Source: Candidatus Zixiibacteriota bacterium
GTDB lineage: Bacteria; Zixibacteria; MSB-5A5; GN15; FEB-12
Reading direction: 5' to 3'
Length of the DNA stretch: 64,000 bases
NCBI GenBank assembly: GCA_024276275.1
Contig: JAJRXM010000020.1
Span: forward strand, 3,231 to 67,230
The notes under the pieces were generated by a model. That model saw only the letters and a program-made list of their open reading frames with translations. It had not been told where the DNA came from and did no database searches. Shown piece by piece: positions 1,752-23,501 of the stretch. The position numbers were made by a program, and so were the translations under genes. Positions within the stretch are counted from its first letter, which is position 1; the number at the start of each line of letters is the position of its first letter.

Positions 1752-2657
1752 TTATGAGCTAAATGTAACCAGTAACACCCCGGCAACAGCAAGGATTATT
1801 CCAATGATTTTTTTTTAGATTGATTTTTTCTTTTAGTATAAAGTAAGCAAAGATAAATATAAAAATTGAACTAGTCTGATTCAATGCTGCCGCAGTAGAG
1901 GCTTGCGTATATTTCATCCCACCCAACCAAAGTATCATAGCGATATACGCACCTAAAACCGAACCCAAAATAGTGCTGGTACGAATACCGTTTTCAAAAA
2001 CTGAACGGACTATTGTACGACGGTTTTTATTAAAAAGCAGAATAAAAGATAAAACTACAACTCCACTCAATAATCGAAGCTCGGTGACCCACATAAGCGG
2101 CTGACTTTCCAAAACCGGTTTAACTATCACGACTCCAAAACCGGTAAGAAACATGGCAACAACACCGTAGAATAATCCTTTAATAATTCTTTTTTTATCA
2201 GTTGTTTTGTTTTCCGATTGGTTTGTGGCGGTGAGAACAGCTGAGAGAATCAAAAAGACTCCTACTATTTGCCAGTAAGTAAGAGATTCACCTAAAAGTA
2301 GAAATGCAAATCCAATCACAAAGGGGGAGTATAAACAATCTACTATAGCTGTTAACCCGGCACCAAGATAGTTCAGGCATTTAAAAAAAATGTATCAGCT
2401 ATACCTATACCGATAACTCCGCTTACAAATATTAAAAAATAATCATTCAACGGAATATCTCTTAAATTCAGCTGATTGAGAAAGAAAAGTGTAGGTATTA
2501 AAAGAAGTACTCCGACAAGATTTTTAAACAGATTTAGACCTATAGGATGTACTGTCTCACCACTTTTTTTAAAAAGGATTACAGCAACCGCCCATATAAT
2601 TGCGGTGCTGACAGCCATTATTTCCCCGATAAACGGAATCTGTTCTATCTGTAACAT
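1752..2657 (-). pseudogene. EamA/DMT-family transporter, frame broken twice in homopolymer runs (pseudogene or assembly error)
   Basis: ORFs 2373-2657 and 1759-2319 are two pieces of one 10-TM EamA-type protein. Adding one base to the A8 run at 2383-2390 gives ...ADTFFFKCLNYLGAGLTAIVDCLYSPFVIGFAF.... Removing one base from the T9 run at 1808-1816 replaces the odd tail KKNHWNNPCCCRGVTGYI with LKKIIGIILAVAGVLLVTFSS, ending at TAA 1754-1752. Confidence 0.8.
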
Positions 2658-2830: not shown

Positions 2831-3667
2831 ATGAAAAAAGTTATATTCTTATTTACACTTCTATTAGTCGGCTGTACTCAAGAACCACAAACCCTCGATG
2901 AATTGCGAACAGCCGGTGAAAAAGCTTTTTTAAATGCAGATTATAAAGCTGCCCAACTTTACCTACAAAAAGCTTTACTAATCAAAGCATCAGATAGGGA
3001 TGCTCTCTATTATCTCGGTCAAACATTTCAAAAGTTACAGCTTGATGATTCAGCCGTTTATTATTTTAAACGTGCCGACATATTATATCCAAATGACAGA
3101 GAACTGAACAAAGCTATTTACAAATCAGCAGCAATGATAGGTGATAATGAAAACAAAATTAAAGCAATAAATGTGCTGGTCAAAACCGGCGATTCACCTG
3201 ATCGGTATTATTTTGAATTAGCCAACCTGAATTTAAAAACTGGAAATATAATAGTGAGTTTCCATCTGTTGAGAAAAATATGGGAAGATGGAACCGATGA
3301 TCAAAATATCTACTTAGCACTAGGTAATGTAGCAGCCCAAGTTGATTCTGTAGATTTTGCAGTCAAAATAACCAAAGAGGCTATCGAGCGATTTGGTGAA
3401 AAAGAGCAGTTTGTTACAAATTTGGCGATATATCTTGCTGGGGCAGGTAAATTAGCTGAAGCAGAAAAAGTTATTAAAAATCAATTACGAAAAAATCCTA
3501 AGTCACAAAATATTCAAATTACTTTAGCTAATATCTTAACGCTTTATGACTCTAAAGCTAAAAAGCACGAAGGACTTAAAATATATCAAGACCTTCGTAT
3601 AGAATACGGTAATATCATGAGTCTTGATTCTCTAATTTTTAACTTAGTTCAGGAGTTAGGGATATAA
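2831..3667 (+). CDS. TPR-repeat lipoprotein
   Basis: ATG at 2831 gives MKKVIFLFTLLLVGC (lipobox). The rest is helical-repeat sequence with TPR-like A/Y/L spacing (AQLYLQKAL, ALYYLGQTF, AVYYFKRA). Confidence 0.6.
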   Translation: MKKVIFLFTLLLVGCTQEPQTLDELRTAGEKAFLNADYKAAQLYLQKALLIKASDRDALYYLGQTFQKLQLDDSAVYYFKRADILYPNDRELNKAIYKSAAMIGDNENKIKAINVLVKTGDSPDRYYFELANLNLKTGNIIVSFHLLRKIWEDGTDDQNIYLALGNVAAQVDSVDFAVKITKEAIERFGEKEQFVTNLAIYLAGAGKLAEAEKVIKNQLRKNPKSQNIQITLANILTLYDSKAKKHEGLKIYQDLRIEYGNIMSLDSLIFNLVQELGI

Positions 3668-3737
3668 AAGAGGGGCAGGATTTTAACATCCTGCCCAACG
3701 CAGGGCTGTCTCGGAAAGAGACAGAGGGGGGTTTACT

Positions 3738-3763
3738 GTAGGTTCTATATATTTAACATAGAA
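3738..3763 (+). repeat. REP-like element (GTAGG followed by a hairpin)
   Basis: GTAGG at 3738-3742, then ttctat...atagaa, a 6-bp stem, in a convergent intergenic region. Confidence 0.3.
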
Positions 3764-3817
3764 AGACTATGTTTTGTTCAAATAAATTTACAAGAAATTT
3801 GAATCGCAATCTATACG

Positions 3818-3852
3818 AAAAACCCCGATAGAATTCTATCGGGATTTTCTGT
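3818..3852. terminator. Bidirectional intrinsic terminator between convergent genes
   Basis: Perfect 20-nt palindrome cccgatagaattctatcggg (3824-3843), flanked by an A-run upstream and attttct downstream. Confidence 0.5.
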
Positions 3853-5330: not shown

Positions 5331-5897
5331 TTATTCGGTATCTTCTTTTTCGTCATGTAGTGATTTTTCGGTATTATACGGAATCGAATAACGGTCGCAA
5401 AAAGCTTTTAATGTCGCTTCACTTTTTTCAATCCATTGAAACAATGAATCCTGTTGCTCCCCCTCAATAAGACGACCCCAATGCATAATACGGTAACTCA
5501 ATAAAGGCATCTCACCTTCTTCAACCTCCTCTTTCATTTCATGTAGAATCTCTAAAAGTGATTCTTTGGTTTTAAAAGGAAAGCCGTTAGTAAAATCAAG
5601 ATGTTCTAGACCTTCATCTATATGAGATTTTATAAAAGAACTTACTCCCGGTATATTAAAATACCACGGTTCTTTTGTTTGGGTTGAATGACAATCATAA
5701 CAGGAATACTCAAGCATCGGCTTTATCTTTTGAAATCCTTTATTGATGATAGCATAAAGAGAATCCTGTTCAGCTTTCATTTTATTGATTTCAGCTTCAG
5801 GAGTTACATCTTTTGGTACTGCTGAGTAACTAATTTGTGTATTTATAATTATACAAATTATAAAAGTAGCAATAACAATTCTTTTGATTGAAAACAT
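5331..5897 (-). CDS. Haem-binding-domain protein (single CxxCH), secreted
   Basis: Signal peptide present. CYDCHSTQTKEPWYFNIPGVSSFIKSHIDEGLEHLDF matches my memory of the bacterial Haem_bd domain (CxxCH followed by PWY...P). Confidence 0.6.
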   Translation of the reverse strand: MFSIKRIVIATFIICIIINTQISYSAVPKDVTPEAEINKMKAEQDSLYAIINKGFQKIKPMLEYSCYDCHSTQTKEPWYFNIPGVSSFIKSHIDEGLEHLDFTNGFPFKTKESLLEILHEMKEEVEEGEMPLLSYRIMHWGRLIEGEQQDSLFQWIEKSEATLKAFCDRYSIPYNTEKSLHDEKEDTE

Positions 5898-6827
5898 TTA
5901 CATATCTCCTTCTTTAATTTTTGAAATAAATCCATTTGCTTTATCTATCATAGTTTTTGACTTTTCTATAGTACAATTAAATTTTTTCATAACAAGAGCA
6001 ATTTTAACAGACCCGTTTGCCGAAAGTAAAAGCTTGTCAGCCTCTTCAAATGTTATATCTAATAGATCTATCAATGTTTTTCTAGAACGAGCAGATAGTT
6101 TTTTTGAGGTTGCCTGTAAATCAACCATCCGATTTCCATACGTTTTCCCGAGCAAAACCATTGCAGTAGTCGAAATCATATTTAACACCAACTTTTGAGC
6201 CGTACCTGATTTCATCCTTGTAGACCCGGTAATAACTTCAGGACCGACCGGCAGTTCGATAAGAAAATCTACAAACGACCGATTATCGTTTAAATCCCAT
6301 TTGTTGCAAATTACAAAAGCTGTCGTACATTTTATCGAATGTGCATACGATAGACCGCTTAATGTGTAAGGTGTCCTTCGTGAGGCAGCAATCCCGATTA
6401 CCATGTCATTATTATGTAATTTATGTTTTTGCAAATCATCAATTGCCGCTTTTGTGTTATCTTCAACACCTTCTTTGGAAAGAACAAGTGTTTCATATCC
6501 ACCGGCAATGACACCGATTATTTGGTCTCGCTCAGAGCCAAAAGTAGGAGGACATTCAGCAGCATCTAAAACACCCAGTCTTCCTGATGTTCCCGCTCCG
6601 ATATAAAAAATTCGTCCGTTATTTCGAATAGTTTTGGCAAATTGTTCTGCCGTTTTAGCGATAACGTCAATTTGTGATTTAACTACATCGGCAACAGTTT
6701 TATCTTCATTGTTGATTATTTGAAGAATTTCAGATGCCGACTTTTTATCTATATCTAATGATTTGCTGTTTACTTGTTCAGTTGCAAGCGTATCCAGAGT
6801 TTTTATGATTTCTTGAAATTCATTCAT
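5898..6827 (-). CDS. murQ: N-acetylmuramic acid 6-phosphate etherase
   Basis: SIS-domain motifs GRIFYIGAGTSGRLGVLDAAECPPTFG and GSTRMKSGTAQKLVLNMISTTAMVLLGKTYGNRMVDL. Confidence 0.9.
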   Translation of the reverse strand: MNEFQEIIKTLDTLATEQVNSKSLDIDKKSASEILQIINNEDKTVADVVKSQIDVIAKTAEQFAKTIRNNGRIFYIGAGTSGRLGVLDAAECPPTFGSERDQIIGVIAGGYETLVLSKEGVEDNTKAAIDDLQKHKLHNNDMVIGIAASRRTPYTLSGLSYAHSIKCTTAFVICNKWDLNDNRSFVDFLIELPVGPEVITGSTRMKSGTAQKLVLNMISTTAMVLLGKTYGNRMVDLQATSKKLSARSRKTLIDLLDITFEEADKLLLSANGSVKIALVMKKFNCTIEKSKTMIDKANGFISKIKEGDM

Positions 6828-6869
6828 ACATAATGTATAGGGAGAAAAATATGATAGAGCAATTAAAAC

Positions 6870-7685
6870 TTAGTTCGTACCTGCGACTATTTGAACAACT
6901 GTTTTACGGGAGACAAAAATAGAGCCAAAATGACCGGTAAATTTTGTTTGATTTATATTGTCCGGTAATTCTGAGGGTAGAGGTGCCGGAAGTATACTTG
7001 AGGACAATACCGAATCGGGAGCACCTGTATAACCATACACATAGATATCATACCAACCGGTATCAAGTGTTTGTGTAGGATTAGCCCTGAAAGCATCGGT
7101 CGGTATAAAAGTCGATGTACCGGCTTCAGTTACATAAGCAGAAAAACCTTTACCTGTATAAGCATTCTGAGTCAATACAACAGCAACAATATACCCGTCG
7201 ACTCCTAAAACCGGAGTCCATTCTACAAATATAGGACTGTTTGTATGCGGAATAGTAGAATCAGGTGCGTTTAATATCCAAAGAGAATCAATGACTTGAG
7301 ATGAGGTAGTATCTGAAAAGATTGTCGAATCAACTATATTGATTACATATTTTCCGCTAGCCAAATAGGGTGTCGGAGAATTTGCAAAAGTATATACAGA
7401 ATCAGTAACATTATATTCGGTACCATATATCAAAGCCGATGAGCCGAAAAAGAGTTGAGCAGAATTCAAGTTTAATGTATTTCTGGTCATCGTAGCAGCA
7501 AAATAGTTATAGTCCTGCTTTTGAGCAGAAAGATTTAAATCCTGCACAAAACAACCTTTGAGTGTATAAGCGTAACCTGAACCGGGAGGGTTAGTTATGT
7601 CGGAATTACCGTTACAGCCACTTAAAATAGCTGTTAGGGCTATCAGTAAACTAAGACTAATTAATTTGTATTTATTCATATTCAT
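6870..7685 (-). CDS. Lipoprotein of unknown function
   Basis: MNMNKYKLISLSLLIALTAILSGC lipobox. No recognisable domain. Confidence 0.55.
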   Translation of the reverse strand: MNMNKYKLISLSLLIALTAILSGCNGNSDITNPPGSGYAYTLKGCFVQDLNLSAQKQDYNYFAATMTRNTLNLNSAQLFFGSSALIYGTEYNVTDSVYTFANSPTPYLASGKYVINIVDSTIFSDTTSSQVIDSLWILNAPDSTIPHTNSPIFVEWTPVLGVDGYIVAVVLTQNAYTGKGFSAYVTEAGTSTFIPTDAFRANPTQTLDTGWYDIYVYGYTGAPDSVLSSSILPAPLPSELPDNINQTKFTGHFGSIFVSRKTVVQIVAGTN

Positions 7686-8061: not shown

Positions 8062-8256
8062 TTACTTATTCGAGTAGAATAATTTTTTAAATATAATCTC
8101 AGCCGGACAAAACTTAGTTATTGATGATTGAAAAAGATTTAATCCGACAAATGCTGTCAAATAAAGCCAGTATCCATTTGGATATAAATAATTAAAAGTA
8201 AGCGAGATGAGTATCATTGTACCTGCAAGAAACCTGATTGAATTTTCTAAGCTCAT
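8062..8256 (-). CDS. DUF2892 (YgaP-like) small membrane protein
   Basis: 64 aa with two TM helices. RFLAGTMILISL ... FVGLNLFQSSITKFCPAE matches the family as I remember it. Confidence 0.6.
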   Translation of the reverse strand: MSLENSIRFLAGTMILISLTFNYLYPNGYWLYLTAFVGLNLFQSSITKFCPAEIIFKKLFYSNK

Positions 8257-8271
8257 GATATAGTCCTTCTA

Positions 8272-9543
8272 TTAAAAATTATAAGTCATTTTTGTATATA
8301 TGTTATCATTAAGGTCTAATGAACCAAATTCAGTATTGGCATATTTACCGTCAAAAACATTTGCACCAATAGTAAGTTTGATCTCATCAGAGTATTTGTA
8401 TTCGGTTGAGAATCTAAAATAGAAATCTTTTTCATCAGGAGAGTAAAATATAAAAGCCGAAACCGTCACAGTTTCATCACTCATCATTTTTGTCCATCGA
8501 CTTGTGACAAGATGTTTTATCTCATCACGGTAATGTGTTGCTCCCATAGATTCTTGTTCGGCAACAAAATAATTATAATCAAACATTTTATCAGCCTGCC
8601 ATTGTAGATTGACAGTGAAACCGGTAGCAACCTGTCGTTCAAAGCCGACCATACCGCTTACAGAAGAGTTAGGCATAAGTGGGTTGTCACCATCGGGGTC
8701 ATCTTTTGAGTTATAATAACCTCCTTCAAGCCAAAAAATTCCACCGAATTTTGCTCCTCTAATTGATGCACCATGGATTTCCATCCGAGGGTAAACAGGC
8801 ATTAATCCATTGGTTGCTACTTCAAGCCCTATTGGGTTCTTATAAAAACCTTTGTAAAAATAAAATGCTAAGGAATACATTCCTACCTGACGTTGAAATC
8901 TTGCCGCAAATTCAGAATTTTTAAATGTTTTTTCAGGCTCATCAGCATTAAAATAGAATTCTTCACCCATGCCGGTGGCAACAATTCCATACGAAGGATG
9001 ATAGTAGCTTAACTTCTCACCTGTTGGGAGACGGTTAGATTCAAATGTCGGTGAAAAAACAAACGAAAAAGAACCGAGGGAATTATAGTATTCCATTCGA
9101 ACTGCATTTTGTGGTGCTTTCAAGTATTGGTCATCACGTCCTAAGAAAAACGAACGGTAATCTTTGGCAAAGACATCATTGATAAAAATTAAATCACCGG
9201 TTCCCCAAGTAAGAATCTGCCGTCCGACTTTAAAATCTAGTTTACTTCCTAAACGAAATTTCAGATATGCTTCTCGAATTTCCCAATCATATTGTTTTTG
9301 TTCTTCAGCAAGACCGTCATAGACAAAATCTATGCGAGAGACAAACTCACCTTGGTCTCCGACAGACTCCATGCGCATCTGTAGCCTTGTTTCAGAAACC
9401 GACTGGTCAGACTTTGTCGGGTTATCTTTGTTCAGTTGTCCGCCGAAAAGTCCCTGTACATACCCGTCGGTATATAGTTCCGCATTTATCTGCGGAACTA
9501 TTATGAATAAAAATATTGCTGTTAAATATATTATTTTTTTCAT
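8272..9543 (-). CDS. Outer-membrane beta-barrel protein (porin-like), partner of the LolA-like/MMPL genes
   Basis: Signal peptide MKKIIYLTAIFLFIIVPQINA, alternating-hydrophobic beta-strand pattern throughout, C-terminal ...MTYNF (terminal Phe). Confidence 0.55.
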   Translation of the reverse strand: MKKIIYLTAIFLFIIVPQINAELYTDGYVQGLFGGQLNKDNPTKSDQSVSETRLQMRMESVGDQGEFVSRIDFVYDGLAEEQKQYDWEIREAYLKFRLGSKLDFKVGRQILTWGTGDLIFINDVFAKDYRSFFLGRDDQYLKAPQNAVRMEYYNSLGSFSFVFSPTFESNRLPTGEKLSYYHPSYGIVATGMGEEFYFNADEPEKTFKNSEFAARFQRQVGMYSLAFYFYKGFYKNPIGLEVATNGLMPVYPRMEIHGASIRGAKFGGIFWLEGGYYNSKDDPDGDNPLMPNSSVSGMVGFERQVATGFTVNLQWQADKMFDYNYFVAEQESMGATHYRDEIKHLVTSRWTKMMSDETVTVSAFIFYSPDEKDFYFRFSTEYKYSDEIKLTIGANVFDGKYANTEFGSLDLNDNIYTKMTYNF

Positions 9544-9557
9544 TTTATTAGTCTCAC

Positions 9558-10271
9558 TTACTTCTTAATATATTTCCTTGGAGGATTTTTTAAATAGCGT
9601 TCAGTGAAAATATCTTCTTTAATGCCTACGTTATAACTGATTTTGTTAAACGAAACAGTTGTATGTCCGCCTTTTTTTATGTTGTTCATTGTGCGAACCG
9701 TTATAGTAGGAATTCCGTCTATAACTTCAATTTTGTCAGCAGAAAATTCTTTCACAAGTTTATCTTTTTTGTTAAAGTATTCTTCTTTTAACGGAAGCAT
9801 CGATTCTTTGTCAATGTAAGAGACTTTGCGGGAGAATCCTTTGTATTTTTTCTTAGGAACAGATTCAATCACGTAAACAGCTTTACCGTCTAAAGTTTCC
9901 TCACCTTTTAATGAGTGGGTATCTTCGGTCCAATGACGACCGGAGACATCTTCATACGAAAAATCAGAGCCGACAAAACTTGAATTTTTGTCATCTGCTG
10001 AAATAGGTTTGATTAAATCAATGGATGGAATATAAATCCAGCGTTGATCGTTTCCCTCAGAAGTTTTATGCACCATAAAAGTAATGCGTGAAACATCGGA
10101 TGGTTTTTTGAAATAGGTGTAATATTTTTGATTACCGCCTTCTTCAATGTCCAAACGAATCATGATAAACTCACGAATCCGCTCTTTACCTTTTTTGGAT
10201 ACGATAGTCATCTTGACATCGGAAAGACCGTCATCACCTGAATAAAAATATGCCAAGTGCGATTCTTTCAT
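9558..10271 (-). CDS. LolA-like outer-membrane lipoprotein-sorting family protein (N-terminus cut off by an in-frame TAA)
   Basis: The 237-aa ORF resembles the LolA-like family usually found next to MMPL/RND exporters. The same frame continues upstream to ATG 10361 and encodes a signal peptide, MKKLTTLFLTFLLIFSLSGSRT, interrupted only by TAA at 10295-10293. Confidence 0.6.
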   Translation of the reverse strand: MKESHLAYFYSGDDGLSDVKMTIVSKKGKERIREFIMIRLDIEEGGNQKYYTYFKKPSDVSRITFMVHKTSEGNDQRWIYIPSIDLIKPISADDKNSSFVGSDFSYEDVSGRHWTEDTHSLKGEETLDGKAVYVIESVPKKKYKGFSRKVSYIDKESMLPLKEEYFNKKDKLVKEFSADKIEVIDGIPTITVRTMNNIKKGGHTTVSFNKISYNVGIKEDIFTERYLKNPPRKYIKK

Positions 10272-10391
10272 TATTTGGTTAGCATCCTGTGCTTAAGTTC
10301 TGCTGCCGGAAAGAGAAAAGATTAGCAGGAACGTTAAAAATAATGTTGTTAGTTTTTTCATTTTAAATCCTTTATTATTATTTGTTATTTT

Positions 10392-12686
10392 CTAATTAAA
10401 TAATGTTTTTTTAAACATTCTGGTTAAGGACGGAAGCAATAGCATTGTTACTAAGCCCGAGACAATCATTATTGCGAAGAAAAAAGCTCCGACAGTTATA
10501 TATGGTACCAATGTTGAAAACAACATAGGAAGAAATCCTATTGCTATTACCATTACATTTCGAGAGATTGCTCTGCCGGTACCTTCAAATATTTCATGAT
10601 ATGAATCATTAAAGTTTTTAGTTCGTTTATGGATAACCCGAAGTCGTTGTATGAAATGTATCGCAAAGTCAATAGAGAGTCCAAGCGTAAGTGACGAAAG
10701 AACCGCAACCGGCATATCATACGGTTTGCCGATATATCCTATAAAGGCATAAATAGCCATGACCGTAATGGTGAGCGGCAGCATTGAGAAAAATCCCCAT
10801 TTAAATGAACGGAATAAAAATACCATCATGATAAAGACGACAACAAATGATGATGCCAATGATTTTTGCATACCGGATACCATCTGATTTTGCCATTCAA
10901 TATTTATAAAGGGAAGACCCGCCCATTTTGCGGTGATACCTACCGGTGGTGGATTATCACTTATGAACTGATTACCGCGGTCAACGACGGCAGATACTGC
11001 CATGTTATCACCATTCTTCAATTGTACCCAAAGATTTGCTTTATCATATTCAGGAGTAACAAATTTAAAGAGATCATCAGGATTCCCGCCGGACATTTCA
11101 AACAGGAACAGAAGTTGAGCTATTTCATTGCTGTTATCAGGTATAACCATTTTAGCGGAATCTTCGGAATACAATTCATAACGAATTTTCTTTACAATAT
11201 CAGTAACACCTGTGGTAGAACCGACAGTTTTATCTTTAGCCAATTCTTTTTGCAGGCTTAACATGTAGTTGAGCAGTTCCGGTGACTTCATAGAACCTTC
11301 ATCTTCACCTTCAAAAACTAAGTAGTTCATGTAAGTTCCTGCAAGATGTGAGTTCATAGCATTGTCGGCTATTCGGATAGGGTGAGATTTTTTAAACCAC
11401 TTTACCGGGTTATCATTGACAACTATAAGGGATAAACCGACAGCAGCAACTACGACGACAACAGCAAATGATGATATAATAAGCTTATAATTTTTATGTG
11501 AAAAGTTTCTAAAAGAGTGCATTACCTTAGCAAGCATGCCATGTTGTTCTCCCGTATCTTTACCAAAATTACGGAGAGTTTTATCAGATATTAGCATAGC
11601 AATTGCCGGGTTAATTGTGAGAGATAAGAACCACGCAACTACAATGCCAAAGGCGACAAAAATACCAAAAACACGAACCGGCGGAATCGGGGTAAGAGCA
11701 AGCGAGAGAAATCCGGCAACGGTGGTCATTGAAGTAAAAAGCATAGGTACAAAAAGTTCATTTATGGAATGTCGTATTGTAGCATCTCTATGTTTATATT
11801 TTTTAAAGTTATCATGAAATTCTGAAATAATATGAATAGAGTTCAGAACTGAAATCGGCATTAGAAATATAGGAATCATTGATGACATTATATGAACAGT
11901 ATTACCGGTAAAAATCAGAAGTCCCATTGCCCAAATAACAGACATCATTGCAACAACCATTGGGGCAATAATAATTTTTACCTGTCTAAAAAACAAAAAG
12001 AGAAGCAAAAATATCACTCCCATAGCAGCCGGAGCCGAGACTGCCATCTGCACAAACATTTCAGACCCAAAGGAATCTTCAGCAAGAGGTAATCCTGCTA
12101 CATGATATTCAGCATTGCCCCCCAAACGGTCGGTAATCTCCTTAATCTCAGTATATAAGCGGTGCGATATTTTTTTTGATTCAATAGGGATAAAAATAGC
12201 AACTGCTTTACCGTCATCAGAAGCAATCTTACCACGTAAAATAGGGTTATTCATTATACGCTGATATATATGCTGTGCTTCTTCGTCAGTTTCGATTTCA
12301 TCTTCCATCAAAGGCTCAATAACAATAGAACCGCCTGCTCCCTGTTTTATATCATCAACCATAGAGATTGACATAATATCATCAACTATGACACCGTCAA
12401 GTTCGGCAATTTCTTCAGTTATACGATAAACTCTGTTAAGTTGGTCGGGCGTGAAAGCGGTCGGTTCGGCAACGATACCAACAGCAATAAAGTCGTATAG
12501 ATTAAAATTATCTTTAGTTGCTGCATGAAACAGGCGAGTCGGTTCGTCAGCTTCTAACATGTTTTGAGGGTCGGTATCAATTTTGATTTTTGGAAACTGC
12601 ATTGCAAAAAATGCTGTTATTAAAACAGCAAGACCGATAACAACCCAAGGTCTTTTAATTGAAAACTCTATAATTGCCTTTTTCAT
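10392..12686 (-). CDS. MMPL/RND-superfamily exporter
   Basis: 764 aa. Two repeats of one TM helix, a large soluble loop, then a cluster of about five TM helices, which is the RND/MMPL topology. Confidence 0.8.
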   Translation of the reverse strand: MKKAIIEFSIKRPWVVIGLAVLITAFFAMQFPKIKIDTDPQNMLEADEPTRLFHAATKDNFNLYDFIAVGIVAEPTAFTPDQLNRVYRITEEIAELDGVIVDDIMSISMVDDIKQGAGGSIVIEPLMEDEIETDEEAQHIYQRIMNNPILRGKIASDDGKAVAIFIPIESKKISHRLYTEIKEITDRLGGNAEYHVAGLPLAEDSFGSEMFVQMAVSAPAAMGVIFLLLFLFFRQVKIIIAPMVVAMMSVIWAMGLLIFTGNTVHIMSSMIPIFLMPISVLNSIHIISEFHDNFKKYKHRDATIRHSINELFVPMLFTSMTTVAGFLSLALTPIPPVRVFGIFVAFGIVVAWFLSLTINPAIAMLISDKTLRNFGKDTGEQHGMLAKVMHSFRNFSHKNYKLIISSFAVVVVVAAVGLSLIVVNDNPVKWFKKSHPIRIADNAMNSHLAGTYMNYLVFEGEDEGSMKSPELLNYMLSLQKELAKDKTVGSTTGVTDIVKKIRYELYSEDSAKMVIPDNSNEIAQLLFLFEMSGGNPDDLFKFVTPEYDKANLWVQLKNGDNMAVSAVVDRGNQFISDNPPPVGITAKWAGLPFINIEWQNQMVSGMQKSLASSFVVVFIMMVFLFRSFKWGFFSMLPLTITVMAIYAFIGYIGKPYDMPVAVLSSLTLGLSIDFAIHFIQRLRVIHKRTKNFNDSYHEIFEGTGRAISRNVMVIAIGFLPMLFSTLVPYITVGAFFFAIMIVSGLVTMLLLPSLTRMFKKTLFN

Positions 12687-12748
12687 AAAAAATGAAATCC
12701 TTTCAATTTATTTTTTCTTTTCATTGTTATTTAGACAGAGCCTGCTTG

Positions 12749-12770
12749 TAAATGATGCAAAATATATTAC
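12749..12770 (-). promoter_or_regulatory. Shared upstream motif, copy 1 (candidate ECF-dependent promoter or operator)
   Basis: Minus-strand TATTTTGCATCATTTA is identical to a 16-mer upstream of the sigma gene (20/22 identity with flanks). It lies 63-84 nt upstream of the MMPL ATG. Confidence 0.35.
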
Positions 12771-12871
12771 CGAATGTGTGATAAATCAAATATAACTTTA
12801 TGTCGGGGAAGTATTAAGAAGATATTTACGGTTGTGTTTTAGATTTTAATATGAGCTGAAATTCAGTTATG

Positions 12872-13126
12872 TCAGCCTTGTTTGCCGAATTTCTTGTCCC
12901 ATCGTTCTTTGAGTAAATTATTGAGTTTACTCTCAAGAGATTCCGGGAGATTTATCACTTTGCCTTCACGACAAAGCTTTACTGTTTGACGCATCGTATC
13001 AACCATAATACGGCAATTCTGACACTCACCTAAATGAGCCTCTATTTCAGCACATAATGACGAGTCAATCTCACCATCAAGATAATCATTTAATTCATTT
13101 ATATATTCAAGACATTTTTTGGCCAT
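12872..13126 (-). CDS. Zinc-finger (HxxxCxxC) anti-sigma factor
   Basis: AHLGECQNCRIMV carries the H-x3-C-x2-C ZAS motif. The gene overlaps the 3' end of the ECF sigma gene. Start taken as ATG 13126 (alternative TTG at 13138). Confidence 0.7.
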   Translation of the reverse strand: MAKKCLEYINELNDYLDGEIDSSLCAEIEAHLGECQNCRIMVDTMRQTVKLCREGKVINLPESLESKLNNLLKERWDKKFGKQG

Positions 13127-13649
13127 ACCGCTCCTCAAATCTCTTTGATAAGTTATCTCTGACAGCTAGTTTAGCTCGAAGGACTCTTGATTTTATCGAT
13201 GCTATCGATTCATTTGTCATCTTAGCTATTTCTTTGATAGATAACTCCTCATAATAACGCAAAAGAAAAACTTCTTTAAATTTTATTGGAAGTAGATCTA
13301 TCGCTTGCTGTATAATCTCTTTTAACTCGCTAGCTTCCAGTTGGCTATGAGGATCTTGCCAGTCAAAGAGTTGTATGCTCCTGTTTTGGTGCATATCTTC
13401 ACCCTGTTTTCCGGGCAAATAAGCCTCAATCTCTTGTAAATCAGCCTGTTTGCGTTTTGCCAAAAATGCTCTCGATTGATTTAAAGCTATTGAGTACAAC
13501 CAGGTACCAAATGCAGATTCACCTCGGAATTTTTCAATATTGTCTATTGCCTTTATAAGTGTTTCCGAGACAATATCTTCAGCATCATGCTTGTTGCCTG
13601 TCATCTTCAAAGCCAAAGCATATAACTTTGATTTATTAGACTGAATCAA
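13107..13649 (-). CDS. ECF-type RNA polymerase sigma-70 factor
   Basis: Region 2 (DAEDIVSETLIKAIDNIEKFRGESAFGTWLYSIALN) and region 4 (FLLRYYEELSIKEIAKMTNESIASIKSRVLRAKLAV). The frame stays conserved-looking upstream (DIKLAQSGDFEAFSRL) to ATG 13709, but with TAA at 13697-13695. Confidence 0.85.
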   Translation of the reverse strand: MIQSNKSKLYALALKMTGNKHDAEDIVSETLIKAIDNIEKFRGESAFGTWLYSIALNQSRAFLAKRKQADLQEIEAYLPGKQGEDMHQNRSIQLFDWQDPHSQLEASELKEIIQQAIDLLPIKFKEVFLLRYYEELSIKEIAKMTNESIASIKSRVLRAKLAVRDNLSKRFEERYGQKMS

Positions 13650-13727
13650 TCTGCTAAATGCTTCAAAGTCACCGGACTGAGCTAACTTAATATCTTATTT
13701 TTCATTCATTAGATAAATAGTATAGTA

Positions 13728-13749
13728 TAAATGATGCAAAATAAATAAC
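13728..13749 (-). promoter_or_regulatory. Shared upstream motif, copy 2
   Basis: Same 16-mer TATTTTGCATCATTTA (minus strand), 19-40 nt upstream of ATG 13709 of the sigma reading frame. Confidence 0.35.
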
Positions 13750-14786: not shown

Positions 14787-16976
14787 ATGTCTATATCTAA
14801 GCCGACAGTTTCAACTCCTTATATCAGTACTCAATTGATATTAGTTAGTTTTGTCATGCTTTTTACCGAAATTGCGCTTATTAGGTGGCTTTCTACAGAA
14901 GCACGTATTTTTTCTTATGTAAACAACCTTGTGTTGCTTTCATGTTTTTTGGGAATCGGATTGGGAGCTTTTTATTCCGCCCGAAAAGTGTATCTTTCCC
15001 TTTTAGGTTTTGGTCTGTCTTTGCAGATATTTTTAATTTGGGTACCGATAAGTTTTTCAATTCAAGGACAATCTTTACATCCGTTCCGAGATATTCCTCT
15101 ACTTTTAAGTTCGTTCACAGATTCCGTAATATGGTATGAGTCAGATATTAACCTAACTATCTTCTTAACAGTCTTAGGCATAACTACTACCATGTTCATT
15201 TTTGCTGTCATCTTGTTTACATTCATTCCTCTCGGACAACTTTTAGGAAAACTACTCGATGATCACCCAAATACTATCAAAGCATACTCTTTGAATGTAC
15301 TGGCAAGTATCATCGGTGTTTGGGCATTCAGTATTTGTTCATTTTTATATACACCCTCTTGGTTATGGTTTGCAATTTCTCTGCTAAGTATATCATCAAT
15401 GCTCCTATTTAAGTCTTACCGTTCCAAAAAAATGTATACTTCGCTCGGATTACTTGCCACTATGGTTCTCTTGTTGGCATTCTTTCCGGGTAAAAAAACG
15501 GATTTGTTAAAGACAGTTTGGTCTCCTTATCAAAAGCTGGAACTTTATCCACAGTTTCTTCTGAATAGTGATATTCAACGAGGTTATTTGTTAAATGTAA
15601 ACAACGTCGGCTATATGAGTATGCTTGACCTTTCCGATAGTATCATGCTTGAACATCCGAATGTGTTTAGTATTGACCAAAGAAGTTTTTCCCAGTACGA
15701 CCTTCCATATCTTTTGAAAAAAAATCCTGATAATGTTTTAATCCTTGGTGCCGGAGCCGGAAATGATGCTTCAGGTGCTTTGAGAAACTCAGCAAAATCT
15801 GTCGATGCGGTAGAAATTGATCCCGGTATTTATAAACTTGGAAAAAAATATCATCCCGAACATCCGTACAGTAATCCGAAGGTGCATGTGTATGTTGATG
15901 ATACCCGTTCTTTTTTAAAACGTACCGATAAACAATATGATTTAATTTCTTTCGGTTTGCTTGATGCCCATACACTCTCAAGTTCTTATAACAATATGCG
16001 GATTGATCATTACGTGTACACTTTGGAAAGTTTCTTAGAGGCAAAGTCCCGATTGAAAAAGGACGGTATCCTTACAATTGCCTTTGAAGCAAGACGACCA
16101 TGGATACAACAGAGACTTTTCAATTTGTTAGAAGAAGCATTTGGGATTCCCCCTGAAGTGATTGTGTATCCACACAGTATTTTTGGCTGGGGGGGAAGTA
16201 TGTTTGTCACGGCGATTGATTCTACTACGCTACATTCAGCTCTCAATTCTGACCCGCTTGTAAAGCGTTTTATCTCAATGTATCGAAAAGATAAAAATCA
16301 TGCTCCTCCCGATGAAGATAAAATAAAACTTACCGTTGATGACTGGCCGTATCTCTATCTTGAAAAGCCGTCGATACCGAAACTGCACTTGAGTATAATG
16401 GCGATTCTGGTTATTCTAATTCTAGTCGGTAAAAATGTTGTCTTTAGAAAAGGTGTCCAACTTGATTATCACTTTTTCTTTTTAGGCACAGCATTTCTCC
16501 TGTTGGAATTTCAGAATATCAGCAAATCGTCTCTTTTATTCGGTTCCACCTGGCTGGTAAATTCATTTGTTATTACAGGTATTTTACTTCTTATATTATT
16601 AGCAAATTATGTCGTAGCAACTTGGAAAATTAATAATATTCGTCCGATTTACATTCTGCTTATTGTCTCATCACTGATAATTTATTTCATACCGCTTGAT
16701 ATTTTCAGTGGTCTCAGTTATTGGACCAGGTCTATTGTTGTATCTATAATGCTTAATATCCCTATTTTTTTTGCAGGTATGATATTTATTATATCATTTA
16801 AAAAGACTGAATCCAAAAACCTGGCCTTTGGCTCTAATCTATTTGGGGCTGTAGTCGGGGGAGTCTTAGAGTCGGTATCATTTATAGTGGGGATAAATGC
16901 TTTACTTCTTATAGTTGTCTTAAGTTATCTTTTATCATATCTCTTTATAAAAAAATCAACATCTTTAAGTTCATAA
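14787..16976 (+). CDS. Membrane-embedded spermidine-synthase-like (class I methyltransferase-fold) protein
   Basis: 729 aa. About 7 N-terminal and 5 C-terminal TM helices flank VLILGAGAGNDASGAL...VDAVEIDPGI...YVDDTRSFL...YDLISFGLLD (SpeE-like fold). Confidence 0.7.
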   Translation: MSISKPTVSTPYISTQLILVSFVMLFTEIALIRWLSTEARIFSYVNNLVLLSCFLGIGLGAFYSARKVYLSLLGFGLSLQIFLIWVPISFSIQGQSLHPFRDIPLLLSSFTDSVIWYESDINLTIFLTVLGITTTMFIFAVILFTFIPLGQLLGKLLDDHPNTIKAYSLNVLASIIGVWAFSICSFLYTPSWLWFAISLLSISSMLLFKSYRSKKMYTSLGLLATMVLLLAFFPGKKTDLLKTVWSPYQKLELYPQFLLNSDIQRGYLLNVNNVGYMSMLDLSDSIMLEHPNVFSIDQRSFSQYDLPYLLKKNPDNVLILGAGAGNDASGALRNSAKSVDAVEIDPGIYKLGKKYHPEHPYSNPKVHVYVDDTRSFLKRTDKQYDLISFGLLDAHTLSSSYNNMRIDHYVYTLESFLEAKSRLKKDGILTIAFEARRPWIQQRLFNLLEEAFGIPPEVIVYPHSIFGWGGSMFVTAIDSTTLHSALNSDPLVKRFISMYRKDKNHAPPDEDKIKLTVDDWPYLYLEKPSIPKLHLSIMAILVILILVGKNVVFRKGVQLDYHFFFLGTAFLLLEFQNISKSSLLFGSTWLVNSFVITGILLLILLANYVVATWKINNIRPIYILLIVSSLIIYFIPLDIFSGLSYWTRSIVVSIMLNIPIFFAGMIFIISFKKTESKNLAFGSNLFGAVVGGVLESVSFIVGINALLLIVVLSYLLSYLFIKKSTSLSS

Positions 16977-17693: not shown

Positions 17694-18707
17694 TTACTTC
17701 TGTTTTCCAAAAAACAATTTCAACATATACCAAATAGTTGCTATCGCCAGCACAAAGAAAATCAGAAAAATCACAAACGGTGACCATTGCGGATTAACTG
17801 CCATCGTAGACGGATCATGAAAATCAATCAATGCCAGTTTCCGTACTATATGTCGGATGGTTACCATCGAAACAAATGAGACAGCAAGCATAATGCTTGA
17901 AACAGTAAATTTCTTTTTAAAGAGGAAATACAAAGAACCTAAAGAAAGTACAAGAGAGACTAAAACAAGCCATATCGCCGGTGATTTCATAAACGGTTTC
18001 ATAAGTTCACCCAGCCCCATCATGTATACCAACCCGGTAGCAATCGAGGCAACCATTCCCCACAGATAAAACTGTTTTCCAACCGCAAATGCTGGCTCGT
18101 TTTTTCGTCCAAAGAGTGCAACAAAAAATCCACCGACAGTAACCGCACCGGTAAGCATGTGTAGCCACCGAAAGAGATACGAGTTTAAATCCGGATTTAT
18201 AATCGTCCCACCTTGGTTCTGTGCATAGAGCAGTTTATACAAATCAGGTTTTTCTGCCAATGCAAACACCGATGTATATATATAGGAAACATATAACAAA
18301 CAGACAAAAGCAATAGATAGATATATCTTTTGTCTGCTGTCAGTTTTTTTAGAAAAAGCAGATGCATACAATGCATAGTATGCGATAATTACAACTGCAA
18401 CGACAAGAAGCCAGTACCACCCCGAAACAATTGCTGATGAATAAATCTGTTGAGGATAGACGAGCTGCACAAACAAAAGAGGAGCCACACCAAATGAAAC
18501 AGTCATAGCCATCGCATTCGGAAAGAGCTTGATAAACTTTTCTACAATTGGATTATTCCATTTATCTTCAAATTTTCCAAAGAGTAAAATTATAATTCCA
18601 CCGAACATAAAGTTCATCGAAATCAAATGAAGTGATAATGTTACAATACTGAGAGTATCAATTATCCACAAAGGAACCGAAAGAAAATTAGAATCAGGAA
18701 GCATCAT
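17694..18707 (-). CDS. Polytopic membrane protein, probable partner subunit of the bd-like/cytochrome c protein
   Basis: 337 aa, about 9 TM helices. Its start overlaps the upstream stop (ATGA at 18704-18707). No motif I can name. Confidence 0.5.
   Translation of the reverse strand: MMLPDSNFLSVPLWIIDTLSIVTLSLHLISMNFMFGGIIILLFGKFEDKWNNPIVEKFIKLFPNAMAMTVSFGVAPLLFVQLVYPQQIYSSAIVSGWYWLLVVAVVIIAYYALYASAFSKKTDSRQKIYLSIAFVCLLYVSYIYTSVFALAEKPDLYKLLYAQNQGGTIINPDLNSYLFRWLHMLTGAVTVGGFFVALFGRKNEPAFAVGKQFYLWGMVASIATGLVYMMGLGELMKPFMKSPAIWLVLVSLVLSLGSLYFLFKKKFTVSSIMLAVSFVSMVTIRHIVRKLALIDFHDPSTMAVNPQWSPFVIFLIFFVLAIATIWYMLKLFFGKQK
17710..17769. repeat. 60-bp direct repeat, copy B (encodes the C-terminal helix of the 337-aa membrane protein)
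   Basis: On the reverse strand this copy encodes ...FLIFFVLAIATIWYMLKLFF. Confidence 0.85.
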
Positions 18708-20215
18708 TCAGTCTCCTTCTTATTTAGTGACATAATATAATCAATTAAAGCTTTCCGTTCTTGAGCATCTCCTGTAAATTCTGGCATTTCTTCGGCAAAT
18801 TCTCCCGCCATATCCAAAATATCCCCGATATCTTCTTCGGTTATTTCCAGCAGAGATTCTGATTTGTCATTGAACCCGTTAAAAACATGGCATTTCCCAC
18901 ATCGAACATCGTATACCTTTTTCCCCAATGCGGTACCTTCAAGATTATATATTTCAGAAAGATGTCGTTTATCTATTTGCGTATAAATATGCGAGGCAAT
19001 CATCTGAGCTTCATCTTCAGCACCGACAAACGGAGGCATATTTCCTCTGATAGCTTGAGTTCCCATAATTATTCCTGCAATAAAAGCTTCATCAGTACCG
19101 TCAAAGGCTTGTTTTAACGGTTTGTACCCATCCATAGTATGACAAGAACGACAGGCACGCCTGAACAAATCAGCAGGCTTGTCGGACGTTTTAAACTGTA
19201 TATACTCATGTAATCCTTCTTCCTGATATGTTTCAGCTTTGGCAACATCAATACCGTTGGCATACATATAATTAGTAATTACATACGGTTTCCGTACAGA
19301 CTCCCGCATCCACTCATATTCTCCAAACCAGGAAAGAGCAAATATCATAGCTAAAGTTCCAACAACGATATTGTATCTTTTCGGAATCAAAAATCCAAAA
19401 ACTATTATGACAACCCCAAGCAGCATAGCATTGATATATGATGCGTTCATAGCAACAACAGGTGTCAGTTTGGATTCTAAGGCAGCATCGTAAATCTCTT
19501 TAGGTATAGTCGAAATATACCAGACAAGAGTCGGCATCATAATTGCCAATCCAACAATTGCCCAGAGCGAATTAAAACGAATAAGTCTTTTTTTGAATTC
19601 ATCAGCCTTTAACCGCGATGCCACAAACAGTGCATAAACCCCCGCAAGCATTATACAGATACCGGTGCGAAGCCAAAGTGATGACCAAAATGTCGGGTTA
19701 AAGAATCCGTCCCAAAAGTTACCGGTAGTAATCCAATCACCGGGGGAGAGCATGAAAGTAATAATACCATTAATAATAAAGAGTGACATCCATGCCGAGA
19801 TAAAATAAATCCATCCTATAATAAGATGATTTTTCGGTGAGAGTTTTTTCCATCCGTAGAAATAGAGCAAAGCGGCACAAATTTCGATAGTGAAAAATGC
19901 CCATTCAGCAGCCCACGCCCAAACAAAGTTATGTATCAGAATTTCAGTCGCAGCCGGGTTTAGCAGTCCGATAATAAACCAAATACCAACACCTGTTAAT
20001 GCTCCAAAAACAACCGAGACTAGTACAAAAAACTTACTTAGTTTTTCTAAAAACTGTAGTTTCAGTAAGTAATTTTTTTTACGGGCGATAGTTTCGGCAA
20101 CGACCAAATACAACCCGCCGCCGATTGCAAAATGTGCTATAAAAACATGGATTACAGCAATAAATGCCATGATAATGCCGTATCCGATTTCAATATCCCA
20201 AAAAGGGTAACTCAT
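18704..20215 (-). CDS. Cytochrome-bd (CydA)-like membrane domain fused to a dihaem cytochrome c domain
   Basis: 503 aa. The N-terminal ~330 aa has ~8 TM helices, with helix 1 IAVIHVFIAHFAIGGGLY resembling the CydA helix-1 His region. The C-terminal soluble part carries CRSCH and CGKCH plus GNMPPF. Confidence 0.55.
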   Translation of the reverse strand: MSYPFWDIEIGYGIIMAFIAVIHVFIAHFAIGGGLYLVVAETIARKKNYLLKLQFLEKLSKFFVLVSVVFGALTGVGIWFIIGLLNPAATEILIHNFVWAWAAEWAFFTIEICAALLYFYGWKKLSPKNHLIIGWIYFISAWMSLFIINGIITFMLSPGDWITTGNFWDGFFNPTFWSSLWLRTGICIMLAGVYALFVASRLKADEFKKRLIRFNSLWAIVGLAIMMPTLVWYISTIPKEIYDAALESKLTPVVAMNASYINAMLLGVVIIVFGFLIPKRYNIVVGTLAMIFALSWFGEYEWMRESVRKPYVITNYMYANGIDVAKAETYQEEGLHEYIQFKTSDKPADLFRRACRSCHTMDGYKPLKQAFDGTDEAFIAGIIMGTQAIRGNMPPFVGAEDEAQMIASHIYTQIDKRHLSEIYNLEGTALGKKVYDVRCGKCHVFNGFNDKSESLLEITEEDIGDILDMAGEFAEEMPEFTGDAQERKALIDYIMSLNKKETE

Positions 20216-20935: not shown

Positions 20936-21687
20936 TTATTTCATCTGATGATTCTGGGTAAAAAACTGGCGAATAGTCAGATCGACAATAACTACCGATG
21001 TTACCGCTACCGCCATTAAAATCATATACATGACAATAATCTGCAGAAGAACCGCATCAAGAGGGTCAGCCCCCGCTAAAATCATTCCGGTCATCGCACC
21101 CGGCAAGGCAACCAGTCCGACAGTTTTCATACTGTTTAAAATCGCTATCATACCGGTTACGACAGCCTCACGAAAATATTTCGATGATGCCGATCTCCAG
21201 CTTTTGCCCAAAGCAAGAGCAGTTTCGACAGCATGACGGTTAGAGCGGATATCCGATGAAATTCTGTTAATCGCAAGTGCCGACGCATTCATAGAGTTGC
21301 CGATTATCATCCCCCCAAGCGGTATGATATAACGGGCTTCAAAAGATATAATTTGTAAAACAGCCATCAATCCAATAGTTACAAATGAACCGAACAGCAT
21401 TGATAGTATTATAAGCAGAAACGGTGATTTAATATTTACTACTTTGCTCGATGCTGCCTGAGCTCCTACAAGAATCATAATTAAAAGCGTTCCAAGAATC
21501 ATCCAGGTTGACTGCAAATCAAAATATAATTTAAGGCATAGCCGACTGCCACAAGCTGTATAAATGAACGGACAGAGCCGATAGCAATATCTTTTTCAAC
21601 ATTGATTTTCCAAAACCTGCTTATAGCGATGGAGACAAGAACTAAAATAAGCGAGAACAGTACTTCTGTTATACCGGGATTGTTCAT
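20936..21687 (-). pseudogene. FetB/YbbM-like ABC-transporter permease (UPF0014), split by a 1-nt frame break
   Basis: ORFs 21499-21687 and 20936-21517 are consecutive parts of one permease. Adding one base to the A4 run at 21521-21524 gives ...VAVGYALNYIFDLQSTWMILGT.... Confidence 0.75.
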
Positions 21688-23381: not shown

Positions 23382-23501
23382 ATTTAAAATATATATATTC
23401 TACCTTCAGAATGCCAATAGAATATTTTTACAAAATTTTGCAATAAAAAAAATTGTTATCTTGAATATGATTGTATAACATGTATCTTGTAAAGACATGT
23501 T

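Follow-up and report, generated by a model that had tools for sequence, protein, structure and literature searches.

The window analysed in this study, a stretch of 64,000 nucleotides from a Candidatus Zixiibacteriota bacterium (contig JAJRXM010000020.1), contains six minus-strand genes at positions 8062-13709, all pointing in the same direction, which probably encode a dedicated and regulated trans-envelope transporter built of four structural proteins. These are an inner-membrane RND pump, a periplasmic carrier with LolA fold, a short outer-membrane beta-barrel and a DUF2892 membrane protein. They form a conserved core that spans the inner membrane, the periplasm and the outer membrane and has its own switch, an extracytoplasmic function (ECF) sigma factor with a small anti-sigma factor. 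The carrier was found beside the barrel at every scored locus of close relatives, and the pump and the DUF2892 gene at nearly all of them. A shared promoter-like motif precedes both the regulator genes and the transporter genes.

Organization of the gene cluster

Domains were assigned with Pfam and NCBIfam profiles, read against the gathering or trusted cut-offs. The features of the cluster are as follows.

13107..13709, minus strand: gene of a group 4 ECF sigma factor, 200 codons, the fifth of them an in-frame TAA
12872..13126, minus strand: soluble zinc-finger anti-sigma factor of the zinc-associated anti-sigma (ZAS) type, 84 amino acids, Pfam zf-HC2 9e-09
10392..12686, minus strand: RND transporter of the inner membrane, HAE3/MMPL type, 764 amino acids, Pfam MMPL 121.7 bits, 4.3e-35
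9558..10361, minus strand: periplasmic LolA_like protein (PF17131 / TP_0789-like), 267 codons, Sec signal peptide, TAA at codon 23
8272..9543, minus strand: outer-membrane beta-barrel, short DUF1302-type, 423 amino acids, signal peptide, C-terminal Phe
8062..8256, minus strand: DUF2892 / YgaP-like two-helix membrane protein, 64 amino acids
8005..8044, minus strand: intrinsic-terminator-like hairpin, 18 pairs and a T-rich tail, 17 nt past the DUF2892 stop

The sigma and anti-sigma genes overlap by 20 nt. A gap of 185 nt separates the anti-sigma gene from the pump gene, and the gaps that follow measure 30, 14 and 15 nt. The cluster appears to be organized in two transcription units, one with the sigma and anti-sigma genes and the other with the genes for pump, carrier, barrel and DUF2892 protein. 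Both units have the ECF-type bipartite motif in front of them, and the transporter unit closes at the hairpin terminator, which is the likely end of the operon. The anti-sigma factor is present in public protein records with its exact 84 amino acids.

A first-pass annotation of this DNA had described six co-directional genes with short gaps which together cover every layer of the envelope. The open reading frame (ORF) listing and the translations agree with this layout, and the conservation of all six genes supports the view of a single module. Its calls of an RND/MMPL pump, of a LolA-fold carrier with its own signal peptide and of an outer-membrane barrel with a terminal Phe also stand, on the basis of the MMPL match, the full-length match of the carrier to PF17131 (191 bits, 1.9e-56) together with its Sec signal, and the DUF1302 match of the barrel, whose sequence ends in ...TYNF.

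Conservation of the module in related bacteria

Near homologues of the barrel were collected from 80 species-level genomes of Zixibacteria, Ignavibacteriales, Calditrichota and a few other groups. Loci and assemblies of relatives are referred to by L-numbers (L001, L002, L003, L021, L082, L083, L113 etc.). Neighbours were searched in six frames with the proteins of the window and scored if they were found beside the barrel in the same order and on the same strand as in the window; the denominators vary from 60 to 76 among the 80 close-relative loci. A second, distant set consisted of metagenomic loci whose barrel is about 35% identical to that of the window, so that neighbour families were compared over 80 + 80 = 160 loci. 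The barrel family itself comprised 1273 proteins in a first search and 1583 clusters at 50% identity in an exhaustive one.

Beside the barrel, the carrier was found at 76 of 76 loci and the pump at 64 of 65, and a DUF2892 gene followed the barrel at 70 of 72. The regulators were in module order less often, the anti-sigma gene at 48 of 61 loci and the sigma gene at 47 of 60. All-against-all clustering of the neighbouring ORFs of the 80 loci recovered the same core, and most of the Zixibacteria, Ignavibacteriales and Calditrichota sampled carry the module. Conservation of the gene order in relatives, which the first-pass annotation had named as a check, thus held decisively. No further conserved family was detected beside the module in the 80 + 80 loci.

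The arrangement of pump, carrier and barrel was kept at 32 of the 33 distant loci with enough sequence. These distant loci carry no sigma or anti-sigma gene. Upstream of 8 of 22 of them an ArsR-family regulator with conserved cysteines was found, one of which is fused to a rhodanese domain. This fusion of an ArsR-type helix-turn-helix (HTH) domain and a rhodanese-like domain lies divergently at 3112-3840 (minus strand) of L113, beside its pump-carrier-barrel copy. The DUF2892 gene occurs at three positions in the distant set: ahead of the pump gene, between those of pump and carrier, or past the barrel gene. Since it is retained while its position shuffles, it seems to be functionally linked and not merely part of an inherited order, and DUF2892 is a probable component of such transporters.

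Pump, carrier, barrel and DUF2892 protein

Besides MMPL, the pump matches the Pfam Sterol-sensing and Patched SSD domains. Its best NCBIfam model is HAE3 (TIGR00921; 175 bits, 1.6e-51), under the trusted cut-off of 351.9, and its matches in the PDB are distant only. The scores do not place it in the HpnN family (102.9 bits versus a cut-off of 751.85), the MMPL family TIGR00833 (137.7 versus 874.7) or the MmpL3 family (17.9 versus 1400), and those for NF052374 (50.9 versus 1100) and BstA (21.7 versus 1400) are below cut-off as well. The pump shares with the hopanoid transporter HpnN and the mycobacterial lipid transporters MmpL the architecture of a 12-transmembrane RND protein that has two periplasmic loops and transmembrane domains of the sterol-sensing-like type, and lipophilic substrates are presumed for such pumps. 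It differs from them in scoring far under their family cut-offs. HpnN, moreover, functions without dedicated periplasmic or outer-membrane partners (PMC6394551).

Pfam matches of the carrier were limited to LolA_like (PF17131), DUF1329 and MucB_RseB, with no match to the LolA family. The DUF1329 match (PF07044) reached 26.2 bits versus a cut-off of 23.1 and extends across 80 residues only. Intact carrier relatives of 267 amino acids exist. Among solved structures, relatives are 9TP6, 4Z48 and 3BK5; the nearest is 9TP6, the LolA3 protein PGN0947 of Porphyromonas gingivalis, matched over nearly its full length with E = 9.4e-32. Like the carrier, LolA3 of P. gingivalis and of Flavobacterium johnsoniae (Fjoh_0605) is a periplasmic, Sec-exported protein having a LolA fold with a hydrophobic groove. 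Unlike for the carrier, neither a pump nor a barrel partner is mentioned in the papers on LolA3. P. gingivalis LolA3 binds LolB weakly, and the authors conclude that its role lies apart from LolA-LolB sorting (PMC13103446), and deletion of lolA3 in F. johnsoniae caused no gliding or secretion phenotype (PMC11885536).

The DUF1302 model (PF06980) is matched by the barrel with 25.1 bits versus a gathering cut-off of 23.2, and by 28 of 29 barrel homologues as well. The match covers the conserved loop region only, and the barrel is about 180 residues shorter than the model. An AlphaFold2 prediction gave a large barrel (pLDDT 75.9, pTM 0.74) for which Foldseek returned general porins as the best PDB matches (TM-score about 0.5); the barrel has no sequence relative in the PDB. 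Residues 107-145 (GRQILTWGTGDLIFINDVFAKDYRSFF.GRDDQYLKAPQ) form the best-conserved stretch, which is mostly invariant in 29 sequences and has the lowest model confidence. This stretch is placed where porins carry the constriction loop L3, and it is the same segment that matches DUF1302. Its loop (residues 110-144) is the leading candidate for a contact with the partner proteins. Long family members of up to 752 amino acids were considered as carrier-barrel fusions, which would have served as 'Rosetta stone' evidence; they are extended N-terminally and contain no LolA-like domain, and were rejected as such.

The DUF2892 protein, predicted to form a two-helix hairpin, matches the YgaP-like_TM model (PF11127) with 42 bits versus a cut-off of 25.3 (1.1e-10). 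Its C-P-A motif is invariant in 73 sequences. In contrast to YgaP of E. coli, it has no rhodanese domain. The DUF2892 gene of the L001 module (9296-9475) was not called in the annotation on record. A second, separate DUF2892-like gene of 64 amino acids is located in L001 at 11937-12472, a few kb from the module and beside an ArsR-type (HTH_20/HTH_5) regulator.

A shared promoter-like motif

The exact 13-mer TTTTGCATCATTT has only two copies in the window, one upstream of the sigma gene and the other upstream of the pump gene. Both belong to ECF-promoter-like motifs.

13709..13738, minus strand: motif 5' of the sigma gene, TGCATC-N19-TCTAA, whose final A is the A of the ATG
12731..12759, minus strand: motif 5' of the pump gene, TGCATC-N18-TCTAA

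Across relatives, the motif 5' of the pump gene has the consensus tttttTGAATCaTTT-N12-ctATCTAA and a constant spacing (58 of 62 loci), and the consensus 5' of the sigma gene is TgTtttttTGAATCaTtTt..cTATAtT...ATC.AATG (37 of 48 loci). Searching 1.15 Mb of relatives' DNA loosely for the family motif TGAATC-N18-TCTAA placed 89 of 111 matches at these two sites. The pump-upstream motif was retained where the sigma factor is encoded elsewhere. A similar architecture is known from the ECF promoters of sigma-E (GGAACTT-N16-TCTGA) and sigma-W (TGAAAC-N16-CGTA). A Bacteroidetes-type -7/-33 promoter was also considered for the shared motif and was discarded as a misfit to the cross-locus consensus. We infer that the ECF sigma factor would directly drive the transporter operon.

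Codons 2-6 of the sigma gene vary mostly at synonymous positions across relatives, which indicates that the annotated ATG is in use. No Shine-Dalgarno sequence was found 5' of this start, either in the window or in the sigma-upstream regions of L002-L081, and in the same regions a conserved TATAtT element lies 8 nt upstream. The sigma mRNA may be leaderless and start from this embedded TATAtT element, or the promoter may have an unusual geometry.

The regulator pair and its signal

The sigma factor consists of regions 2 and 4 only (Pfam Sigma70_r2 2.5e-17, Sigma70_r4_2 6.6e-14) and exceeds the cut-off of the NCBIfam sigma70-ECF model clearly (109 bits versus 42.9). The co-encoded anti-sigma factor has the ZAS signature H-x3-C-x2-C. 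C5, H31, C35 and C38 are invariant in 50 orthologues and give the pattern C-x26-H-x3-C-x2-C, whose N-terminal cysteine spacing we take to be that of RsrA. No hydrophobic or membrane segment was detected in its 84 amino acids. Because the protein is soluble, lacks a membrane segment and shows the RsrA-type cysteine spacing, its sequence suggests a cytoplasmic thiol-based signal, and the module is probably controlled by cytoplasmic thiol stress. Control by envelope stress, which the first-pass annotation had proposed, was not borne out by a soluble anti-sigma factor with invariant, RsrA-spaced Cys and His residues.

SigR-RsrA is the ECF sigma / ZAS anti-sigma switch of Streptomyces. The module resembles it in combining a two-domain ECF sigma factor with an overlapping gene for a small soluble anti-sigma factor which carries the H-x3-C-x2-C motif and an N-terminal cysteine 26 residues ahead of the histidine. 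However, its score does not place the anti-sigma factor among the RsrA orthologues; antisig_RsrA (TIGR03988) is its best NCBIfam model and was matched with 34.8 bits, under the cut-off of 62.5. The promoter motif of the module, TGAATC-N18-TCTAA, also sets it apart, as does its apparent regulon, a transporter operon and not a set of thiol-homeostasis genes.

The module could alternatively be read as a constitutive route of outer-membrane biogenesis, in line with the first-pass annotation, which had suggested a conduit that carries lipids or lipoproteins to this membrane and is controlled by envelope stress. The LolA fold of the carrier is in line with such a role, transport of membrane lipids is known from HAE3 relatives, HpnN among them (PMC6394551), and Price et al. 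proposed the export of a cell-wall component for a related cassette (10.1101/072470). Nevertheless, this interpretation seems unlikely to us. The regulators are a soluble thiol-type ZAS protein and an ECF sigma factor instead of a membrane-spanning envelope sensor, and the HpnN and BstA models were matched far under their cut-offs. No LolCDE-type ABC transporter was found in the module or among its conserved neighbours; the carrier is instead partnered by a proton-driven RND pump and belongs to PF17131 and not to the LolA family. A lipoprotein conduit in particular is further disfavoured by the weak binding of LolB by LolA3 and the lack of a gliding or secretion phenotype in the lolA3 deletion mutant (PMC13103446, PMC11885536).

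Relation to known transporters and proposed function

The module is a compact relative of a known, yet little understood type of transporter, represented most closely by the AmeABCD system of Castellaniella defragrans and by the proteobacterial DUF1302/DUF1329/BNR/RND cassette. AmeABCD consists of a DUF1302 outer-membrane protein, a DUF1329 protein of the LolA superfamily, a COG4447 propeller and an HAE3 pump. Deletion of ameABCD decreased monoterpene tolerance and increased dye accumulation, and ameB was required for growth on monoterpenes (PMC6394551). Genes for DUF1302, DUF1329, BNR and RND (COG1033) proteins were cofit in several proteobacteria (10.1101/072470). A study from 2026 states that no DUF1302 structure has been solved and reports a DUF1302-DUF1329 complex predicted by AlphaFold-Multimer with an ipTM of 0.84 (PMC13499233).

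The module and the cassette both combine the gene for an HAE3-type RND pump with those for a DUF1302 barrel and a periplasmic protein of the LolA superfamily, and both are proposed to span the envelope and to handle hydrophobic molecules. They differ in five respects. The barrel of the module has 423 amino acids versus about 600 in the cassette, and its periplasmic protein is a PF17131 member of 267 amino acids versus about 450 for a typical DUF1329 protein. A gene for a BNR/Ycf48-like beta-propeller (COG4447, AmeC) was found neither in the cluster and its flanks nor at any of the 80 + 80 loci, whereas the DUF2892 membrane protein is a conserved fourth component of the module. Finally, the module is under the control of an ECF sigma factor and a ZAS anti-sigma factor or of ArsR-type regulators, in contrast to the LuxR-type regulators of the cassette. 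Our literature search yielded no paper describing the module in the form found in the Fibrobacterota-Chlorobiota-Bacteroidota (FCB) group. The first-pass annotation was correct in that the arrangement has no defined substrate, but a precedent with a phenotype exists in AmeABCD (PMC6394551; 10.1101/072470).

We favour the view of a dedicated, regulated transporter and propose that it would work in the following way. In unstressed cells, the soluble zinc-binding anti-sigma factor would hold the ECF sigma factor. A thiol-reactive signal in the cytoplasm, such as an oxidant, an electrophile or a reactive sulfur species, would free the sigma factor, which would then transcribe the transporter operon. 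Driven by the proton gradient, the pump would draw a hydrophobic molecule from the inner membrane or the periplasm and pass it to the hydrophobic groove of the carrier. The molecule would finally leave by way of the barrel, either crossing the outer membrane or entering it.

Several points weigh against this view. The ZAS motif is no proof of redox sensing, as many ZAS proteins are not redox sensors, and the RsrA model was matched below its cut-off. The Pfam match of the barrel is marginal and its model of medium confidence, and its most conserved loop (residues 110-144) is poorly modelled. At 29 of the 37 loci the -10-like element runs up to and includes the first base of the sigma start codon; autoregulation of the sigma gene is uncertain because a motif overlapping the start codon misfits the standard geometry of ECF promoters. 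No sulfur- or detoxification-related enzyme is consistently found near the module in the 160 loci. The direction of transport, the substrate and the physical contacts within the FCB-type module are those we infer. Mutants of P. putida in the DUF1302/DUF1329 and BNR/RND genes were defective on Tween 20 and butyl stearate, and these growth defects on fatty esters can be read as uptake (10.1101/2020.07.04.188060).

The module might accordingly serve the uptake or surface processing of hydrophobic nutrients such as fatty esters, hydrocarbons or terpenes instead of export. The occurrence of DUF1329 genes in several aromatic and steroid catabolic islands (10.1101/072470) and the requirement of ameB for growth on monoterpenes (PMC6394551) point in the same direction as the P. 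putida mutants. We regard uptake as improbable, since, to our knowledge, the RND pumps characterized to date export their substrates from the membrane or the periplasm, the increased dye accumulation and reduced tolerance of the ameABCD deletion mutant fit efflux (PMC6394551), no catabolic genes consistently adjoin the module in the 160 loci, and regulators of the stress-sensor type are conserved instead.

A more specific proposal is that the module is an envelope-spanning exporter of lipophilic thiol-reactive species that is switched on by cysteine-based cytoplasmic sensors. Candidate cargoes may be zero-valent sulfur or organic polysulfanes that arise in sulfidic sediments, or else lipophilic electrophiles. 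We consider this assignment speculative, and the hints to it are circumstantial. Both lineage-specific regulator types carry conserved cysteines (the RsrA-like ZAS protein and the ArsR proteins, one of them rhodanese-fused), DUF2892 is a membrane domain that is otherwise found on the rhodanese YgaP, and many carriers of the module stem from sulfidic or sulfate-methane-transition sediments. A DUF2892 gene was strongly induced by sulfide in Azospira (PMC5358917).

Premature stop codons

Two of the six genes contain an in-frame TAA codon.

13695..13697, minus strand: nonsense TAA at codon 5 of the sigma gene; GAA (Glu) in all five close relatives; G-to-T
10293..10295, minus strand: nonsense TAA at codon 23 of the carrier gene; TCA (Ser) in L082, L083 and L002; C-to-A

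The sigma gene translates as MNEK*DIKLAQSGD..., and its intact 200-amino-acid orthologue in L001 starts with MNEKEDIK. The carrier gene translates as MKKLTTLFLTFLLIFSLSGSRT*AQDANQ...; its TAA lies just before the signal-peptidase site, between signal peptide and mature domain, and the corresponding codon in L003 is TCG, which also encodes Ser. Both lesions are single G:C-to-T:A transversions with respect to close relatives. The truncated ORFs (237 and 165 amino acids) and the other four proteins are recorded at NCBI under one and the same contig, so both TAA codons belong to the deposited assembly. As written, the module would be off here, with no full-length sigma factor from the normal start and a carrier without signal peptide.

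The ratio of nonsynonymous to synonymous substitution rates (dN/dS) versus L003 was 0.03-0.08 for all five genes compared, both TAA-bearing genes included; the sigma gene (0.07) and the carrier gene (0.04) behave like the intact ones. Long-term pseudogene decay is ruled out by these values, and the lesions look recent or artefactual. Premature TAA codons in sigma factor and carrier had been reported in the first-pass annotation. Both are indeed in the contig, yet they are not a property of the module, since two unrelated conserved genes of the window are frameshifted. An EamA-type gene is interrupted in a run of eight T (2373-2394, minus strand, near 2380), and its halves at 1759-2394 and 2373-2678 align to a single orthologue of 313 amino acids in L003. 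In a UPF0014/FetB-like gene (20936-21595), a frameshift at 21523-21538 (minus strand, near 21530) puts the N-terminal 63 residues off-frame from the rest.

The TAA codons may well be errors of sequencing, assembly or consensus calling, or variants of a minority strain, in a metagenome-assembled genome rich in lesions, so that the module of the organism itself works. This would fit the single transversions that distinguish them from all close relatives, the strong purifying selection on both genes otherwise, and the frameshifts within the first 22 kb of the window. It would also fit the related Zixibacteria assembly L021 of the same naming series, which carries a GAA-to-TAA change of its own in another codon of the sigma gene (6217-6219) and frameshifts in the pump gene (about 8055) and the UPF0014 gene (about 1190), while L003, a third assembly of this series, is intact. 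On the other hand, the TAA codons stand in the public record, substitution errors are uncommon in short-read assemblies, and ten other suspicious pairs of overlapping ORFs elsewhere in the window correspond to intact genes, among them those for LptF, LptG, a MurA-like protein and GNATs.

Alternatively, the TAA codons could be genuine recent loss-of-function mutations by which the population switched the module off. Two of six genes are hit, the sigma gene is hit independently in L021, loss of sigma factor and carrier would both silence and disable the system, and AT-rich genomes favour mutations that create TAA. This explanation is possible, but the two genes show neither more lesions nor relaxed constraint, and unrelated genes are lesioned at similar density, which points to data quality. 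Overall, we lean towards a data-quality origin of the TAA codons.

Readthrough or recoding of TAA in the organism might be suspected from two in-frame TAA codons in otherwise intact genes and a third one in L021. It can practically be dismissed. Most long ORFs in the window end in TAA (54, versus 21 in TGA and 11 in TAG), no suppressor tRNA is encoded in the window, whose sole tRNA is tRNA-Glu(CTC), the residues lost are not the same (Glu, Ser, Glu), and frameshifts occur alongside. In this window, not too much should be made of the stop codons.

Flanking genes

Past the module, the region 5331-7685 (minus strand) codes for a lipoprotein of 271 amino acids that no Pfam family matches, for a MurQ-like protein with SIS domain and for a Haem_bd protein. 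The first two are also encoded downstream of the module in about 28 of the 80 close-relative loci; as the terminator separates them from it in the window, they were set aside as neighbours. On the other side, between the module and oxidase genes, a polytopic membrane protein of 729 amino acids with a central spermidine-synthase-like domain is encoded at 14787-16976 (plus strand). Its gene is absent from that place in L003. The 503-amino-acid protein encoded at 18707-20215 (minus strand) combines an N-terminal part like cytochrome bd oxidase subunit I with a C-terminal cytochrome c domain, and its gene is followed by that of a partner of 337 amino acids without Pfam match. Adjacent complete genes for LptF and LptG at 23493-25915 (plus strand) indicate that the organism makes and exports lipopolysaccharide.

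Implications

HAE3 RND pumps that are accompanied by LolA-fold and DUF1302 proteins occur widely. New in our analysis are the four-component core including DUF2892, the lineage-specific regulators of the cysteine type and the defined promoter motif. The module also suggests which genes might be the partners of the orphan LolA3 proteins in Bacteroidota genomes. A dedicated sigma/anti-sigma pair together with a sharp promoter motif provides a testable handle on this family of transporters, as the signal that releases the sigma factor is likely to point to the substrate.

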